The translations under genes and the position numbers were made by a program. Positions 16,306 through 56,864 of a stretch of DNA of 64,000 bases are shown piece after piece. Numbering within the stretch: the first letter of the stretch is position 1; every line of letters begins with the position of its first letter. The notes beneath the pieces were generated by a model. That model did not search any database, was not told where the DNA came from, and was given only the letters and a program-made list of their open reading frames with translations. This DNA comes from Planctomycetota bacterium (GTDB taxonomy: Bacteria > Planctomycetota > UBA8108 > UBA1146), in NCBI GenBank assembly GCA_036338595.1, contig JAYZBV010000065.1:17502-81501 (forward strand), written 5' to 3'.

Positions 16306-16734
16306 ATGAAACCGATTCGCCTTGCTCGCATCGCCAGCCAGTTGCGTGAAGAAATTTCTCGAATCATCCAGTTCGATCTCAAGGACCCGAGGATTGGATC
16401 ACTCACGGTACTGGCAGTCCAGCCGACCGAGGACCTCAAGGAGTGCAAGGTCTTCGTGTCCATCCTGGGTGATGAGGCGAATCAGCGCACTTCTCTCAGA
16501 GGGCTTGAGGCTGCACGCGGCAAGATCCAGTCGCTCCTCAGCACCCAGATCCAGCTGAGGGAAACGCCAATTCTACGCTTCGAACTGGACGAAAGTCAGC
16601 AGCGGACACAGGCCATCGAAGAGATCATTCGCGCCGCCAGGGAAGAGGATGAACTCGCGGCTCTGGAACGTGAAAAACGGGGTACACCCGCCGAGACCGG
16701 GCCAGACCCGGACGAGGACCTGGCAACGAGTTAG
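16306..16734 (+). CDS. rbfA: Ribosome-binding factor A
   Basis: LKDPRIG, DLKECKVFVS, LRETPILRFELDES; follows infB. Confidence 0.93.
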   Translation: MKPIRLARIASQLREEISRIIQFDLKDPRIGSLTVLAVQPTEDLKECKVFVSILGDEANQRTSLRGLEAARGKIQSLLSTQIQLRETPILRFELDESQQRTQAIEEIIRAAREEDELAALEREKRGTPAETGPDPDEDLATS

Positions 16735-18155
16735 TGTCGCTCTCTGCCCTCGTAGTTTCCCTGCTCTACAACTACCAGTCGATCCCGACCCGCTCTCTTG
16801 GCCTGATACAGTGCGGTATCCGCCTCATCGAGAAGTTCGTCTGCAGAGATCCCATCACGCAATACCGTGACTCCAACAGATAGCGACAGGTTCGATGCTT
16901 CGCGCGCACGGCCACCGAGAAACTCATACTTCCGGAACTGGTCGATAAGAGCTCGTCCCTTTTGCTCCATATCTCTCAGATGGGAACCTGGCATCAGAAT
17001 CACGAACTCATCTCCTCCGTATCGACAGACATGATCACTTTCTCGAAAAAACTCGACCAGCAGTGCAGAGATCTCTTTCAGCAACTCGTCGCCAACCATG
17101 TGGCCGAGAACATCGTTGATACCCTTGAAACCATCGAGGTCTGCAAACAGTAGCCCCAGCTCTCCGCCTTCGCGCCGGGCCCTGTGGACCTCTTTCTCCA
17201 GTTGAGATCCGAGGTATAGACGATTCGCAATCCCTGTCAGTGGATCCAGCAATGCTTGCTTCTCCAGCTGGTCATGTAATCGCAAGTTTTGAAGCGTCAG
17301 TGCGAGGATTTCCCCGATGGTACCAAGCACCTCTTCGTGCCAGTCCTTGAGAAGTGGAGCCTCTTCGAGCAGTTTCACTTCTCTCTGGTCTATTGTCAGT
17401 TCCAACATGCCGCAGGGGGATTCACTCCCTACAGCCAACGGAAGCCTGCGGAACCCTGGATCATCCTTCTCGGCGATACGGGATCGATTCATCAGGTCCG
17501 GATCGCTACACCAGGCGATCTGCTTCTCTCCATCCTTGTAACTCCACAGGCGCACATTTCTGTAACCAAGTCCCTCGGAGCAAAGTAGAGTTCCTGCCCT
17601 ACAGAAGAAATCAACCTCGTCTCGAACGCCGATCAACAGCGTTGACAACCTGGGTGCCGTGCGTATCTTCTCTGTCAGTTGAAAGATCCTGAGAGATGTT
17701 CGGACAGCATCGCAGGCACGCCGACGTTGCTCCTCCATCTCTCTTTCTAGCCCGACCCCACTCTCTTCCAAAATCCTCAGGCGATAAACCCAGCGTTCAT
17801 CTCCGCGAGGGCTCACTCGGCGTCCACCCACCACCGCAACGGGTCGCCAGTCATCACCGTGGCGAATCCTCAGCAAGATAGCATCGGGTTCGGATTCCCC
17901 ATCTCCTCCGAGCGACAGCAAACGGTGATGGTCCTCCTCGTGGAACCAACCAGTCAGCTCGCAATCTCTCAGTTCCTCTGCCTCACTGCAGGAGATCAGA
18001 TCGAGGAACGCCCTGTTGATTGCAATCACCTTGCGATGAGGCCCCCGGGCCACGATCAAGGGATCAGGAAACAGATCGAGCAGCAATCGAGACTCCCCGG
18101 GGTCAGGGGGTAATGGCCACTCACCGGGCCTTTTCGAAAGCAGAGCGCGGGACAT
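16731..18155 (-). CDS. Sensor diguanylate cyclase (PAS-like, GAF-like and GGDEF domains)
   Basis: DPLTGIANR, DLDGFKGINDVLGH--GD, RESD I-site, RYGGDEF, ADTALYQAKRAGRD; start uncertain (18155-18227). Confidence 0.9.
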   Translation of the reverse strand: MSRALLSKRPGEWPLPPDPGESRLLLDLFPDPLIVARGPHRKVIAINRAFLDLISCSEAEELRDCELTGWFHEEDHHRLLSLGGDGESEPDAILLRIRHGDDWRPVAVVGGRRVSPRGDERWVYRLRILEESGVGLEREMEEQRRRACDAVRTSLRIFQLTEKIRTAPRLSTLLIGVRDEVDFFCRAGTLLCSEGLGYRNVRLWSYKDGEKQIAWCSDPDLMNRSRIAEKDDPGFRRLPLAVGSESPCGMLELTIDQREVKLLEEAPLLKDWHEEVLGTIGEILALTLQNLRLHDQLEKQALLDPLTGIANRLYLGSQLEKEVHRARREGGELGLLFADLDGFKGINDVLGHMVGDELLKEISALLVEFFRESDHVCRYGGDEFVILMPGSHLRDMEQKGRALIDQFRKYEFLGGRAREASNLSLSVGVTVLRDGISADELLDEADTALYQAKRAGRDRLVVVEQGNYEGRERH

Positions 18156-18277
18156 ACAGACCAACTTCCAGAATTCCTGTGTGCAGGCTCGAAGAGGTCC
18201 CGCAGATAAGAATAACATGGAGTCCACGAACGGACCCGCCGGGTGGCATGATCGGCGGTGCTCTGATACCGTTTCTC

Positions 18278-46099: not shown

Positions 46100-46189
<90 letters not shown>

Positions 46190-46315
46190 CGACGCTTCCT
46201 CGTGTCATCTCTTCGCACCCGAATCCAGGGGACTGATGCTCACCGATCAGGCACCATTTTCCCCGGAAATCTCGACAATTCCAGGGATCTATAGCAGACC
46301 TGGATGCCATGGGAG

Positions 46316-46405
<90 letters not shown>

Positions 46406-46422
46406 GCTATCATCCATGATCA

Positions 46423-46914
46423 TCATTTTCCGTTCGAACTGTCCCTGCGCTGCTGAAAAAAGGAACGCAACAGTTCGCCCGACTCTTCACCGAACAATCC
46501 ACCGGACCACGAGACATCGTGATTGAAGAGGCCAGGCTCGAAGACTCTCAACTTCGTGTCCACCGCTCCCCAGCGAGAATCCGTGGCTCCGAAAACAACC
46601 CTCTCGATCCTCGCCTGGAGGATCGCGCCGGCACACATCGGGCAAGGCTCCAGAGTACAAAAGAGTGTGGTGCCATCCAGCCGCCACCCCTCGATGGCCT
46701 CGGCTGCCTGCCCGATGGCAAGGATCTCAGCGTGGGCCGTCGGATCTCGAAGGGTCTCCTTCGCATTCCGAGCCTGCCCGATCACCCCTTTGTCGGGATG
46801 CACGATCACCGCCCCCACCGGGACCTCGCCGTCCTGCTCTGCAGCCCTCGCTTGCTCAAGCGCCAGTTGCATGTGAATTCGGTCGGAATCTTCATCGAGC
46901 CAGGAGATGCCCAT
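46423..46914 (-). CDS. tadA: tRNA adenosine(34) deaminase
   Basis: GEVPVGAV, DPTAHAE, WRL, TLEPCPMCAGA, FF--RR. Confidence 0.93.
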   Translation of the reverse strand: MGISWLDEDSDRIHMQLALEQARAAEQDGEVPVGAVIVHPDKGVIGQARNAKETLRDPTAHAEILAIGQAAEAIEGWRLDGTTLFCTLEPCPMCAGAILQARIERVVFGATDSRWGAVDTKLRVFEPGLFNHDVSWSGGLFGEESGELLRSFFQQRRDSSNGK

Positions 46915-46950
46915 TCAAGGTCCTCCGCCCCTGGTCAGGGATCGATCAAG

Positions 46951-47024
46951 CACGCCGGGGAGGATTCGAACCCCCAACCTCCTGATCCGTAGTCAGGTGC
47001 TCTATCCAGTTGAGCTACCGGCGC
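46951..47024 (-). tRNA. tRNA-Arg(ACG)
   Basis: GCGCCGG acceptor, TAGCTCAACTGGATAGAGC, anticodon arm CCTGA-CTACGGA-TCAGG, GTTCGAATC; CCA not encoded. Confidence 0.95.
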
Positions 47025-47081: not shown

Positions 47082-47927
47082 TCATTTCCCATCCCAGTCA
47101 TCGGGAACCCAGTCGTCTAGGTCCTCGTCCACGGGAGCCTTTGACGACGAATCTGGGGGCAAATCTGAATCCAGCGCGACAACGGGAGCCACCGTCTTCT
47201 CTGTTTTCTTCCCGGAACTTGTCCCATCCGCTCGATCGATACCCTCTCCATCAGGTTCCTCTGGCTCATCCTCGGAGAGCAGATCGTCGAGTATTTCGAG
47301 TCCTCGATCGGAACCCTGCTGACGGAGGCGCTCCGGTTCAGGCAGTGCATCGAGTCCCGAGAGTCCAAGCAGTTCAAGGAACTCGGTGGTGGTTCCATAG
47401 AGAAGAGGGCGTCCGATCGACTCCTCCTGACCGACGACCCGCACCAGCCCCCACTCCATCAGGTTCTTGAGAATCGGACCGCACTGCACGCCGCGAACAG
47501 CTTCCAGATCAGACCTGCGTACAGGCTGACGATAGGCGATGACCGCGAGCGTCTCGAACGCAGCTGAACTGAGCCGAATGCGGCGGCGCCCGCCCCGCAG
47601 TCGAGCCACGAAGGGTGCGAATTCTGGTTTGGTCAGAAGTCGCAATCCACCACCACCCTCATGAAGCAGATAGCCACGAGGTGTCGTGATCAACTCTGCC
47701 TCCAGCTCGAGAAGAGCTTTCTTGACCGCACCCTTCGGCGCTTCACGGAGCATCGCGTGAAGACGGCGGCGAGTGACAGGCTCCGGGGATGCGAACAGGA
47801 TGGCCTCGATGGTTGACTTCAATCGATCACCATCGAGTTCTCCGAGCGACTCCCCTTCATCGCAGCCAGGCACCTCGGATGGTTTCTCCTGCTCACCATC
47901 CGGTGCATTGCTGTCTCTAGATATCAT
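47082..47927 (-). CDS. scpB: SMC-Scp complex subunit ScpB
   Basis: IEAILFAS-EP, LSSAAFETLAVIAYRQP, VRGV, GRPLLYGTT-EFL---GL--L--LP; acidic tails. Confidence 0.92.
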   Translation of the reverse strand: MISRDSNAPDGEQEKPSEVPGCDEGESLGELDGDRLKSTIEAILFASPEPVTRRRLHAMLREAPKGAVKKALLELEAELITTPRGYLLHEGGGGLRLLTKPEFAPFVARLRGGRRRIRLSSAAFETLAVIAYRQPVRRSDLEAVRGVQCGPILKNLMEWGLVRVVGQEESIGRPLLYGTTTEFLELLGLSGLDALPEPERLRQQGSDRGLEILDDLLSEDEPEEPDGEGIDRADGTSSGKKTEKTVAPVVALDSDLPPDSSSKAPVDEDLDDWVPDDWDGK

Positions 47928-48973
47928 CGTTCTCCTTCTGAGTGATCCCCATCCTCTGTCACCTGGGTCGGCTTCGGGACCGCTTCGATGGACACTGGAA
48001 TGCGCCTCCGGATCAACCGCTCCACCGACAGCAACTCTTCATCGGTGGCGGGCTCATCCAGCAACTGCTGGAGCAACTGGGCCCGCACCTCAGAGTAGGC
48101 TCGAGTGGCTCTTGTCTCCACCACCCTGAACAGGTGCCAGCCATAATCAACCTCTTCGACCGGCCCCAGCACATCCCCCTCGGGCACCTGAAACACCTCG
48201 AAGAAGGCCGGATTCCCGGCCAGTTCAGATTCTCTTATCCAGCCGCTGCCTATTCTGGGCATATGTTCGGACCCGATCCCCACCGGCAGTTCCACAGCCT
48301 CCTCGAGGGGTGTTCCCGAGGCGAGTACCTCCCGGGTGTTATTTGCCCACTGCTCGATCCGGGTCCTGAGTTCTCCTTCATCGGAACCTGCTGGAAAGGC
48401 GATATGCTCGACCAGTCGCCTCTGCTCTTTCCATGTCACCCGCCACAGATCAAGGATCTCCTCCTCCTCGATCTCCCGGTGGTGAGAGACCACTGCCTGG
48501 ATCAGCAGCGCAGGACCGACCTCCAGGGCGATCTCCCGGCGTAAATCACTTTCGCCCAGGCCCTGTAACTCCAGCCTGGCCAGTGCTCGCTGGCGCTCCT
48601 GAAAGGTCTCTCCGAGGATTCGGATCATCTCCTGCTCGACCTGAGCAGCAATCTCCTCCGAATCGATACCGATCCCCTGCCGCTCTGCCTCGGCGCTGAA
48701 GAGTGACTCACGGACCAACCCGTTGAGGGCTCGAGGACCGTAATAGCGAGCCAGTATTCGTTGTTTGAGTTCACGATCAGTGATGATGTCCCGACCGACG
48801 CGAGCCAGGATGGTGTGCCCATCCGGAGCCTGTAGGCGGTTCACGGCTTCCGGGCGAGTTCCTGAACCCGATACCGAATAGGGATCCCAATTGGTATCCC
48901 TCGCATTCCGGGGCGATTCACAACCCAACAGGACGAGGATGAGCAGCATCCATGGCAGTGAGCACCTCATCAT
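47924..48973 (-). CDS. PpiC/SurA-type peptidylprolyl isomerase-like lipoprotein
   Basis: Lipobox LLGC, LARVG--IT, HI, GPVE---GWHLFRV. Confidence 0.7.
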   Translation of the reverse strand: MMRCSLPWMLLILVLLGCESPRNARDTNWDPYSVSGSGTRPEAVNRLQAPDGHTILARVGRDIITDRELKQRILARYYGPRALNGLVRESLFSAEAERQGIGIDSEEIAAQVEQEMIRILGETFQERQRALARLELQGLGESDLRREIALEVGPALLIQAVVSHHREIEEEEILDLWRVTWKEQRRLVEHIAFPAGSDEGELRTRIEQWANNTREVLASGTPLEEAVELPVGIGSEHMPRIGSGWIRESELAGNPAFFEVFQVPEGDVLGPVEEVDYGWHLFRVVETRATRAYSEVRAQLLQQLLDEPATDEELLSVERLIRRRIPVSIEAVPKPTQVTEDGDHSEGER

Positions 48974-50175
48974 GATGGCTTACCTTCATAGTGGCGCAGG
49001 ACTTCAACGAGTTGGGTCGTCGAGAGCAGCCCCATCTGCACCATGCAAAGGCCCATCATCTTTCGGCCTCGACCCTCTTTTTCCAGCCGCTCCTGTTCCG
49101 CCAGCACACAATTCACATCGTCGCGGGTGACAAAACCGAGTTGGACGGCCAGATCTCCGAAGCGAGTGCCGCCCTCACCGAGGGGAGTCATCTCACTGCT
49201 GTAGCCTGTCGGATGGGTTCGATGCCAGCGCCATGCAGTTTCCATGATCATCGACATCTCGCTGTGTTCAGGAGTCCAACCAAGGAGTTTTTTCGCCTTC
49301 TCATTGGAAGCGAGCAAGGTGGCTGGATCTCCATCTCTACGCCCTTCTTCCACGACATGAAAATCGATCCCCGTGATTTCCTTCGCGGCTTCCACCACAT
49401 CGCGCACAGACGCACCCGCAGAAGATCCAAGGTTGATCGATTCGCCCGCGACCGTATCTATCCGTTCGAGAGCCAAGAGGTGCGCTCGAGCGATGTCGGT
49501 GACATGCACGAAATCACGCACACAGGAGCCATCCGGGGTATCCCAATCAGTACCGAAAATGATGAACTGCTCTCGGCTTCCCAGCGCACATTGCAAGAGC
49601 AACGGGATCAGGTGCCCTTCCTCTGCATGGTCCTCACCTACCAATCCAGAAGGATCGGCTCCGGCAGCATTGAAATACCGGAGGCACACGTGTTTCAGCG
49701 CGTGACGCTGGGAGATGGCGGTCAGTGATTCTTCCACCAATCGCTTCGAATCACCGTACGGATTGACAGGACGCAACGGGTGCGTCTCCGTAATCGGAGT
49801 CTCCTCAGGATCGCCGTAGACCGCCGCCGTGGAGGAGTGAATCAGTACGGGTACCTCTGCCAGCAGCATTGCATCCACGAGATTCAAGGTGCCTGCCAGA
49901 TTGTTGTGGTAGTAGGCCGCAGGGATCTGGACCGATTCAGGTACGCTGCAGGAAGCTGCCAGGTTGAAGACCGCATCGAACTGATTCGTCTCGAATGCGG
50001 ACCGAAGAGTCTTCCTGTCGTGAGTACTTCCCTCGATCAACTCCACATCCGAGATCGCTTCCCTGTGACCTTCCCTCAGGTCGTCGAGGACGACCACCTC
50101 GTGACCTGCTCGGAGGCTTTCGAGAACACAATGACTGCCGATATATCCGGCGCCCCCCACGACCAATATCCTCAT
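48970..50175 (-). CDS. galE: UDP-glucose 4-epimerase with C-terminal MshEN-like extension
   Basis: GGAGYIGSH, SSTAAVYG, YGDSK (YxxxK), LRYFNAAGA, DGSCVRDFVHV, AWRW, then about 70 extra aa. Confidence 0.93.
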   Translation of the reverse strand: MRILVVGGAGYIGSHCVLESLRAGHEVVVLDDLREGHREAISDVELIEGSTHDRKTLRSAFETNQFDAVFNLAASCSVPESVQIPAAYYHNNLAGTLNLVDAMLLAEVPVLIHSSTAAVYGDPEETPITETHPLRPVNPYGDSKRLVEESLTAISQRHALKHVCLRYFNAAGADPSGLVGEDHAEEGHLIPLLLQCALGSREQFIIFGTDWDTPDGSCVRDFVHVTDIARAHLLALERIDTVAGESINLGSSAGASVRDVVEAAKEITGIDFHVVEEGRRDGDPATLLASNEKAKKLLGWTPEHSEMSMIMETAWRWHRTHPTGYSSEMTPLGEGGTRFGDLAVQLGFVTRDDVNCVLAEQERLEKEGRGRKMMGLCMVQMGLLSTTQLVEVLRHYEGKPS

Positions 50176-50292: not shown

Positions 50293-51021
50293 GTGACACG
50301 GATGGCTCGCAAAGATCGAAGCAACGACACCCCCCGTTCCATCGAGGTACTCACTGGAGTCATCTCCGGGATTGAATCCAGTGTTCAATATCGGTGCGGC
50401 AACACCAGTATCTTGTGTGTTTCATCGCTTGAGGAAGGCACACCGAAGTGGAACACCAATCCTTCAGGTTGGGCCACTGCTGATTACCAGATGATGCCCT
50501 ACAGCGTCACCCCAAGGCTGGACAGGATCAGTCACAGGAGTCCCGATGGGCGCGCCACCGAGATCAAACGTCTGCTCGGTAGATCACTGCGCGCTGGGCT
50601 GGATCTCTCACTGATGCCTGGCTACACCATCCGAGTCGATTGCGATGTGCTGCACGCAGATGGCGGTACCCGGACCGCCTCCATCAATGCCGCTGCGGTG
50701 TCGGTGAGCCTGCTGATCCAGCAGCACCTCTCCAGCGGAATCCTCGCCACGGACCCGCGCCGTGCGCTCATCCTCGGCATGAGTGCCGGAATCCTGGGCC
50801 AGGATTTGCTCGTCGACCTCGATTATCAGGAGGATAGCAGTGCCTCCCTCGACCTGAACCTCATCGGCACCTCGACCGGGGAGGTGGTGGAGGTCGTCGG
50901 CGGGTGCGAAAAAGGTCCCGTTGCCATGGAAACGATGCAAAGCGTCATCGACGCTGCCCGGGGCGGAATCCTGCAGGTCTCCCAGATGCTCGATGAGCAC
51001 CTGGTGGCGATGAGCCCCTGA
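50293..51021 (+). CDS. rph: Ribonuclease PH
   Basis: GWATADYQMMP, GRATEIKRLLGRSLRA, DCDVLHADGGTRTASIN, DLDYQEDS; start 50293 or 50302. Confidence 0.9.
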   Translation: MTRMARKDRSNDTPRSIEVLTGVISGIESSVQYRCGNTSILCVSSLEEGTPKWNTNPSGWATADYQMMPYSVTPRLDRISHRSPDGRATEIKRLLGRSLRAGLDLSLMPGYTIRVDCDVLHADGGTRTASINAAAVSVSLLIQQHLSSGILATDPRRALILGMSAGILGQDLLVDLDYQEDSSASLDLNLIGTSTGEVVEVVGGCEKGPVAMETMQSVIDAARGGILQVSQMLDEHLVAMSP

Positions 51022-56274: not shown

Positions 56275-56459
56275 GTGAACTGGTCGTCTTTCTGGTGCTG
56301 ACAGCCTTCATCTCCGTTGTTCATGTGTCAGTCACCCGCACAGCAGACAGGAAGGACGGGCTTCACAGGGAGGCCAGACGCTATTTCCTCAGTGCTGCAG
56401 GAGGAATGCTACTTCTGGGTCTGATCATCGAAGCGATCGCTCAACTCTTCCAGTATTGA
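56271..56459 (+). CDS. Small two-TM hypothetical protein
   Basis: GGAGG RBS, GTGA overlap with upstream gene, two hydrophobic helices. Confidence 0.6.
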   Translation: MSELVVFLVLTAFISVVHVSVTRTADRKDGLHREARRYFLSAAGGMLLLGLIIEAIAQLFQY

Positions 56460-56486
56460 GGCGAGTTCGGTATCCTGTCCGATGGT

Positions 56487-56864
56487 GAGCGGGTGTAGCG
56501 GTCGCGGCATGGTCCATCCATGACGAGGAAAGTCCGAGCTCCGCAGGGCAGGGTGGTGGCTAACGCCCACCGGGAGCGATCCCAGGGAAAGTGCCACAGA
56601 AAATATACCGCCGGAGATCCTCGGATCCCCGGTAAGGGTGAAATGGTGAGGTAAGAGCTCACCGCGGGGGCGGTGACGTCCCTGGCAGGGTAAACCCCAC
56701 CCGGAGAAAGGCCAAACAGAGGCAAAGGAGCGGTCCGCTCCGTTCCCGGTTCGCCGGGAGAATGCCCGGGTAGGCCGTTCGAGTCGTCCGGCAACGGGCA
56801 ACCTAGAGGAATGACCGCACATCGATCTCGTATCGGTGAACAGGACTCGGCTTACAGCCCGCTC
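56487..56864 (+). ncRNA. rnpB: RNase P RNA (type A)
   Basis: GAGGAAAGTCCGAGCT, AGTGCCACAGAAA, GGGTGAAA, GGTAAGAGC, GGTAAACCCC, ACAGGACTCGGCTTA; ends pair (GAGCGGG/CCCGCTC). Confidence 0.95.

Follow-up and report, generated by a model that had tools for sequence, protein, structure and literature searches.

Known control of surface glycans by cyclic dimeric guanosine monophosphate, the second messenger also written c-di-GMP, acts mostly at synthases and at transcription. A well-described receptor is the MshEN domain: in the complexes of Vibrio cholerae MshE (VcMshE; PDB 5HTL, PMC5013675) and of the GSPII-B domain of Thermus PilF (8PDK, PMC11731258), its N-terminal part, MshEN_N, consists of four helices with two 24-residue motifs and lies N-terminal on a pilus ATPase. 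The architecture table of PMC5013675 pairs MshEN with ATPases, glycosyltransferases, REC, CheA, CheX, kinases, an M23 peptidase and TrxB, and fusions described there include E. coli NfrB (GT2-MshEN), Methylobacillus EpsG, an Aeromonas CheA, an Acaryochloris TrxB-MshEN_N and cyanobacterial stand-alone (MshEN_N)2 proteins. Here we describe a galE gene, encoding uridine diphosphate (UDP)-glucose 4-epimerase (GalE), whose reading frame continues into a C-terminal tail of MshEN type. It lies in a 64,000-nucleotide stretch (the window) of a Planctomycetota genome (GCA_036338595.1, contig JAYZBV010000065.1, positions 17,502 to 81,501). The pairing of this known receptor fold with envelope-precursor enzymes, GalE and the Kdo-pathway enzyme KdsA, is real, old and selected. 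The tail shares with the known non-ATPase fusions a portable MshEN_N, which some of them link to the synthesis of glycans or to an enzyme of metabolism (PMC5013675). In the known glycan-linked fusions the module sits on a polymerase, whereas here it is found at the precursor step.

The GalE-MshEN and KdsA-MshEN pairings are apparently undescribed. Neither was found in a search of the open literature, which does not extend to papers behind a subscription, to supplements on bioRxiv or to the architecture pages of databases. Supplementary Table 4 of PMC5013675 lists no epimerase, short-chain dehydrogenase/reductase (SDR) or KdsA architecture, the words "epimerase" and "GalE" are absent from both supplementary files of that paper, and "epimerase" does not occur in the main text of a Leptospira survey. 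The initial annotation of the window likewise knew of no description of the GalE-MshEN architecture.

The GalE protein and its tail

The GalE half is complete, and its active site is intact by sequence. The TIGR01179 GalE equivalog model matches residues 2-324 over its positions 1-331 of 332 with 391.6 bits (cut-off 262.3), the catalytic and nicotinamide adenine dinucleotide (NAD) residues are all present (GGAGYIG loop, D31, S115, Y140-x3-K144), and a Foldseek search with the predicted structure returned Nostoc GalE All4713 (8WXK) as the closest solved structure (root-mean-square deviation, rmsd, 1.2 Å; 49% identity). The whole catalytic domain, the NAD loop and the Ser/Tyr/Lys triad are thus those of ordinary GalE, from which the protein differs by its C-terminal extension, the lack of a gal operon and the existence of pseudo-enzyme orthologues. 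The extension, put at about 70 residues by the initial annotation, comprises 76 residues after Y325 of the HPTGY motif and stops five residues beyond the second of its two motifs. In the full-length model (predicted template modelling score 0.79) residues 327-334 are disordered and a helix begins at residue 335; because of this score and the disordered linker, the tail is predicted to have no fixed position on GalE. Neither galK nor galT was found in the host genome (88% complete), beside galE or elsewhere, and galK occurs in one of 27 genomes of its family, f1, in which the fusion is the sole GalE above the TIGR01179 cut-off, the host included. The window GalE is therefore probably anabolic, supplying UDP-galactose for biosynthesis rather than serving salvage.

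Within the tail, the two motifs are separated by an 11-residue spacer (Table 1). The initial annotation had read them as copies of the MshEN motif, the first (nucleotides 49164-49093) with R1, G3, G10, L21 and Q24 and the second (nucleotides 49059-48988) without R1 and Q24, joined by a linker of about 11 residues where the canonical one has 5; all these particulars agree with the alignment, in which the second copy has Met at position 1 and Tyr at position 24. Both G3 glycines, the first Gln and the six hydrophobic cluster positions are common to the tail, VcMshE and PilF GSPII-B, and both hydrophobic triads can be recognized (F339/L389/L393 and V354/L358/M374). In contrast to those domains (PMC5013675, PMC11731258), the tail has the long spacer, Phe at position 2, Tyr or Met for the second Gln, and no α/β subdomain MshEN_C after the helical bundle. 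The profile search proposed by the initial annotation gave a match that falls just short of its cut-off: NCBIfam NF053729 (c-di-GMP motif, MshE-related) matches the last 76 residues with E 8.1e-9 and 35.1 bits, but the tail has no Pfam match, PF05157 (full MshEN/T2SSE_N) included. Two orthologue tails (38.6 and 39.4 bits) and one of seven stand-alone representatives (39.6) pass the NF053729 cut-off. A sequence search of the PDB returned five weak matches to the tail, the best four being PilF, MshE (5HTL) and PilB (E 0.11-0.72); with the tail profile, designed repeat proteins ranked above PilF and MshE, so that this search is weak evidence.

Conservation follows the putative ligand site. Across 53 fusion proteins G340, G347, Q361, G368, G375, L389 and L393 are invariant, and L358 (98%) and F339 (96%) nearly so; in 81 stand-alone proteins the first G3 and Q24 and the second G3 and L21 are kept in all. 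A comparison of 18 diverse tails leaves as invariant the ligand-contact positions and G368, and the turn glycines vary. The best-conserved positions map onto the guanine-contact and ribose-phosphate positions of VcMshE (PMC5013675). Further conserved residues, H371, K372, E380 and Q388, lie outside the MshEN consensus. Position 1 of motif 1 is Arg in 53% of the 53 fusions (R338 in the window) and otherwise mostly Leu, Phe or Lys, and position 1 of motif 2 is Leu in 70% (M373 in the window), where the extended consensus has R/K/L (PMC11731258). The initial annotation had noted the missing Arg, but an Arg at this position is not decisive; what sets the family apart is that it has replaced the second Gln throughout and has a spacer of 10-11 residues. 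With Lys or Leu at position 1, PilF GSPII-B binds c-di-GMP better than with Arg, to 2 nM (PMC11731258), and the varied position 1 of motif 1 is for that reason no objection to binding.

The tail was modelled with AlphaFold2 from a 17-row alignment. The model has four helices (residues 4-11, 17-32, 40-46 and 52-64 of the model; mean predicted local distance difference test score, pLDDT, 89.8), and Foldseek placed c-di-GMP-bound MshE (5HTL) first (template modelling score 0.76, E 0.15), followed by the PilF GSPII-B complexes, with no match at E ≤ 0.001. VIA-align, run over 48,161 chains, also ranked 5HTL first (Z 9.6), the four-helix bundle superposing on V. cholerae MshEN with an rmsd of 2.2 Å over 58 residues; MshE, PilF (two rows), PilB and XpsE fill the first five places, and Z has dropped to 6.2 at the first row unrelated to them. 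For a helical domain this small, such scores are moderate, but fold and profile are concordant. The ESM Atlas gave, as a lead only, unnamed clusters of 68-87 residues (0.94) and a PatA_N cluster (0.92; 48% of its members). Profile, fold and conservation together uphold the identification as MshEN. Because the second Gln and the 5-residue spacer, two defining features, both fail, we class the tail as a subfamily with the MshEN_N fold, which, judged from its sequence, probably acts like MshEN.

Distribution of the fusion and relatives of the tail

The class was surveyed with a profile that joined the end of GalE to the tail, made from 17 rows drawn from the same genomes. GalE end and tail occur in one frame, as a single copy each, in 35 of 59 class genomes: the host, 24 of 27 genomes of f1, and all genomes of f2 (five), f3 (one) and f4 (four). 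This profile found no fusion in f5 (0/3), f6 (0/14) or f7 (0/4); in one of the f1 misses, G013, galE is truncated by a contig end. The initial annotation had considered that close orthologues might lack the tail; they carry it. The ratio of nonsynonymous to synonymous substitutions (dN/dS) in the tail is 0.05-0.24 in seven of nine pairs (the unsaturated ones), similar to that of the core, and GC content, overall and at third codon positions (GC3), is alike in the two parts. RNA runs cover small parts of the stretch only; a contig of a close relative (run X3, 49019-49275, five differences) spans the core-tail junction, although contigs cannot show transcription. The named homologues are Planctomycetota, and the fusion is maintained across classes at 30-45% core identity.

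Of 401 genomes sampled from the phylum, at least 66 gave a match, 51 of them outside the class, with stand-alone copies under-counted since 11 candidates were scored per genome. Inspection of 42 of these 51 matches gave 13 GalE-tail fusions in five families (f27, f32, f56, f71 and f76), two KdsA-tail fusions and 27 stand-alone genes. Longer proteins searched with an 18-row tail profile yielded 52 matches, comprising 41 GalE fusions, two KdsA fusions and nine others (FapA, a type II secretion system ATPase, a kinase and unassigned proteins); GalE fusions were favoured in this search because the profile was made mostly of GalE tails. In a search of 1.84 billion representatives, the GalE fusions were followed mostly by stand-alone proteins 67-130 residues long (81 of the best 150, two fragments excluded) and by multi-copy proteins, of which P0019, P0020, P0025, P0026, P0032, P0042 and P0047 combine three to seven modules with zinc ribbons, FHA, Ser/Thr kinase or FapA. 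By its sequence, the tail belongs to a large, mostly stand-alone, long-spacer MshEN_N subfamily.

Some stand-alone genes also lie beside genes for sugar enzymes. Seven of the 27 directly follow galE (G071, G250, G265 and G221), another SDR acting on nucleoside diphosphate (NDP) sugars (G119 and G393) or kdsA (G149). In G071 galE closes with TAG, and a separate ATG behind a purine-rich stretch opens the tail gene; in G265 and G221 the tail gene lies in a different frame from galE. The split order in G071 and G265, namely galE, tail gene and a peptidyl-prolyl isomerase (PPIase) gene, is the same locus as that of the fusion, and split and fused states are intermixed within f27. Nine genomes of G066's class show the tail fused to KdsA in two, encoded by the next gene after kdsA in two, and not present within the fetched flank in four; in the remaining genome kdsA itself is only partly present. 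Recorded KdsA-tail proteins are the 346-residue 3-deoxy-8-phosphooctulonate synthases of Uabimicrobium amorphum (WP_151967891.1) and Ca. U. helgolandensis. The host genome itself has two stand-alone tail genes (Table 1), one of them beside lpxK, followed by an unnamed gene and, two genes on from lpxK, an hldE-like PfkB/cytidylyltransferase gene. The links of the module point to precursors of lipopolysaccharide (LPS) and the envelope, LPS being more likely than exopolysaccharide (EPS). The initial annotation had named EPS, holdfast and LPS as possible destinations: the ties to KdsA and LpxK favour the last, and the other two find no support, galE-tail lying among housekeeping genes with no EPS, holdfast or polysaccharide cluster in the neighbourhoods examined.

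Possible functions of the fused module

We think it somewhat probable, from the sequence comparison, that the tail binds c-di-GMP; that the bound messenger then adjusts the epimerase, and with it the UDP-galactose supply for envelope glycans, is a more tentative step. In this model an active epimerase would be tethered by a loose linker to a four-helix MshEN_N module, with c-di-GMP lying between the F339/L389/L393 and V354/L358/M374 clusters and the backbone amides of G340 and G375, and with Q361 holding one ribose-phosphate. Binding would unwind the first turn of helix 1, where the GalE linker joins, and so shift the seating of the tail on the GalE dimer or the oligomeric state; the level of the second messenger would thereby tune UDP-galactose for envelope glycans, for LPS rather than EPS. 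A signal route through this first turn to the linker is plausible by analogy with PilF, in which the turn must unfold for binding (PMC11731258). Binding by PilF GSPII-B is still sub-micromolar after loss of one Gln (PMC11731258), a CheA MshEN_N with R1M and R30K binds at 2.6 µM, and the known MshEN non-binders have lost G11/G40 or the Leu clusters (PMC5013675 and its supplement). The host is equipped to form and degrade c-di-GMP, with two GGDEF proteins (with GGDEF and GGDEL motifs) and one REC-HD-GYP protein; no EAL protein was found in its genome, and none of the four f4 genomes has an HD-GYP-type match at E ≤ 1e-30. Direct action of c-di-GMP on a carbohydrate enzyme has a precedent in Streptomyces GlgX, which reportedly uses no MshEN domain. 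GlgX is regulated allosterically by the messenger but differs in acting in glycogen breakdown, not in nucleotide-sugar supply (PMC9530166).

Several observations weigh against this model. The 35.1 bits of the window tail lie just below the curated NF053729 cut-off of 38, and Z 9.6 is below the level that VIA-align deems safe for helical bundles. Position 24 of motif 2 is Tyr or Met across the fusions (Y396 in the window) and never Gln, the Q61A change at this position of VcMshE weakening binding 12-fold (PMC5013675 supplement), and the spacer has 10-11 residues in the fusions against 5 in the solved MshE complex. Residues 338-397 hold eight Lys or Arg and nine Asp or Glu, unlike the basic patch of VcMshEN, and PilF GSPII-A, although near the consensus, does not bind, R62Q being among the changes required for restored binding (PMC12002112). 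GGDEF genes occur in all 41 relatives and all 13 distant carriers; their presence is merely permissive because the 41 include non-carriers. The upstream neighbour of 20 of the 27 stand-alone copies is something else or unnamed (proB, an aminotransferase, unassigned), many being unnamed partly since frames were chosen by length in GC-rich DNA, and the seven copies beside sugar enzymes are partly dependent, G265 and G221 being one genus. Finally, as set out below, some orthologues have lost the YxxxK motif, and these cannot be gated epimerases.

Of the competing explanations, the one that fares best, though we hold it to be fairly unlikely, is an MshEN fold without c-di-GMP binding that either docks to proteins, as do XpsE-N and PilF GSPII-A, or has another guanine nucleotide as its ligand; it would place envelope-precursor enzymes at a cellular site. 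The family-wide loss of the second Gln, the long spacer and the newly conserved H371, K372, E380 and Q388 agree with this, as do the non-binders XpsE, PilB and GSPII-A among the fold matches and the lesson of GSPII-A that near-consensus is no guarantee (PMC12002112). However, the positions lost in known non-binders are the best kept in the 53 fusions and 81 stand-alone proteins, and each of two stand-alone copies is upstream of a GGDEF gene on its own strand, at a distance of no more than 0.8 kb.

The orthologues with altered active sites raise a different explanation, in which the tail binds c-di-GMP but its output would be contact with a protein instead of epimerase flux; NAD/UDP-sugar occupancy would be reported by the GalE half, and catalysis, a secondary task, could pass to a second galE. 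Loss of Tyr or Lys destroys GalE activity. The YxxxK motif is missing in G025 (Lys only), G026, G028, G029 and the f4 genomes G031, G033 and G035 and intact in the relatives G027 and G030; as judged from the tree, it was lost several separate times. The eight dead rows of alignment A5 all retain the NAD glycine loop, D31, R166, T213, D215, R220, D221, H224 and D227, the dead f4 cores have dN/dS 0.20-0.24 (two pairs with one row in common), and all four dead f2/f3 carriers own a second, tail-less GalE above the TIGR01179 cut-off. As both domains are conserved where YxxxK is lost, the fusion appears to be kept there for a role other than epimerisation. The gated epimerase proposed in the initial annotation is thus compatible with the intact window enzyme but is not the whole story. 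As a general account the sensor is nonetheless unlikely, for YxxxK is kept in 47 of the 53 fusion proteins (lost in four, not covered in two), the fusion is the only GalE above the cut-off in f1, and the f4 genomes have no backup above it; moreover, the kept residues may be structural.

It is still less probable that the tail is a passenger, a small stand-alone receptor gene that an old operon carried between galE and surA and that was fused by stop loss, with two halves that work independently. The locus also occurs in split form, f27 mixes split and fused states, kdsA likewise occurs fused and split, and the linker is disordered and variable. Yet at unrelated loci the module is fused to, or the neighbour of, three or more different enzymes of envelope sugars, conserved GalE halves that are dead remain attached although a mere passenger has no need of them, and the fusion endures at 30-45% core identity across classes. 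An assembly, frameshift or read-through artefact, which a draft genome of 114 contigs with 7.2% contamination might suggest, has a negligible probability, because the tail recurs in one open frame in orthologues (35 of 59 class genomes) under purifying selection, with GC and GC3 the same in core and tail and 41 further GalE-tail clusters from other sources.

Control by c-di-GMP may take a broader form, which we consider possible but doubtful: a dedicated long-spacer MshEN_N subfamily, either fused or as a small subunit of its own, would put GalE, other NDP-sugar SDRs, KdsA and possibly LpxK under c-di-GMP control in deep-branching Planctomycetota, the GalE half having become in some lineages a non-catalytic UDP-sugar/NAD sensor, a two-input integrator. 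If this is true, receptor modules carried by GalE and KdsA would move control one step earlier, to the supply of nucleotide sugars and Kdo, with the Uabimicrobium KdsA fusion as a test case. In the open literature the c-di-GMP targets of Planctomycetota are almost unstudied. With its long spacer and no second Gln the subfamily also puts the MshEN motif rules to the test. Annotation mostly overlooks it, as it has no Pfam match, falls mostly below the NCBIfam cut-off and goes under the plain names GalE or KdsA.

The galE-tail locus and neighbouring features

Table 1. Coordinates of the fusion gene, its parts, neighbouring genes and related tail genes (plain numbers refer to the window; L numbers to other loci)
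Feature	Position	Strand	Remarks
galE-tail fusion gene	48970..50175	-	Single open frame, 401 residues
GalE domain, residues 1-326	49198..50175	-	TIGR01179; Foldseek 8WXK
Flexible linker, residues 327-337	49165..49197	-	pLDDT <50 at 327-334; length and sequence variable
MshEN-type motif 1, residues 338-361	49093..49164	-	R338 F339 G340 ... V354 L358 Q361 = VcMshE R9 L10 G11 L25 L29 Q32
Spacer, 11 residues (362-372; canonical 5)	49060..49092	-	Lengthens helix 2; conserved G368, H/R371-K372
MshEN-type motif 2, residues 373-396	48988..49059	-	M373 M374 G375 ... L389 L393 Y396 = VcMshE R38 L39 G40 L54 L58 Q61
SurA/PrsA-like PPIase gene	47924..48973	-	ATG overlaps galE stop (ATGA); Pfam matches weak, below cut-off
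scpB	47082..47927	-	Third gene of probable operon in class; Pfam and neighbourhood comparison
rph (RNase PH)	50293..51021	+	Divergent neighbour, then rdgB/HAM1 gene; Pfam and neighbourhood comparison
GGDEF diguanylate cyclase frame	16734-18275	-	Intact GGDEF; PAS/GAF-like N-terminus; one of the genome's two
KdsA-tail fusion	L153:3441-4517	-	G066
KdsA-tail fusion	L154:2578-3633	+	G201
kdsA, then separate tail gene	L184, L188		G149 (L184), G435 (L188)
Stand-alone tail gene, host genome	L050:6147-6641, contig C76	-	9 nucleotides upstream of lpxK
Second stand-alone tail gene, host genome	L052:1293-1691, contig C37	-	Upstream of large Ala/Gln/Lys pentapeptide-repeat protein

Throughout f1-f4, rph and rdgB are divergent from galE-tail, which is followed by the SurA-like PPIase gene and scpB. 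The PPIase gene also follows galE-tail in f32 (G083; not G157), f56 (G136 and G113) and f20, and is found in G265 (f27); because this neighbour recurs across families of the phylum, the locus is old. In f20, f32 and f56 (L142-L147) rnfC, with rnfD/G too in several, comes after galE-tail and the PPIase gene, replacing scpB. That tail-linked galE arose once is compatible with approximately unbiased tests (p 0.64 with all 24 tail-linked rows, 0.69 with 21), run on a quick tree of 46 of 79 rows after removal of near-duplicates and long branches, with a background of mostly ordinary GalE ends among the matches listed by a contig scan with an orthologue fragment. A careful 52-row tree needs four changes for the fused label; because of these changes and an open backbone, a single origin of the fusion stays unproven.

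Elsewhere in the host genome, contigs C71, C111, C37 and C76 encode four PilB/GspE-type ATPases with MshEN motifs of uneven quality, and there is a PilT-like ATPase whose N-terminal motif is degenerate. Downstream of scpB in the window, a tRNA-Arg(ACG) gene and two tRNA-Ser genes flank tadA (46100-47024, minus strand), with a sigma-70-like site at 47064-47037 just upstream of tRNA-Arg. Short overlapping frames at about 56409-56822, flanked by a gene for a small membrane protein and by an ASPIC/UnbV-like gene, resemble an RNase P RNA gene read in antisense.

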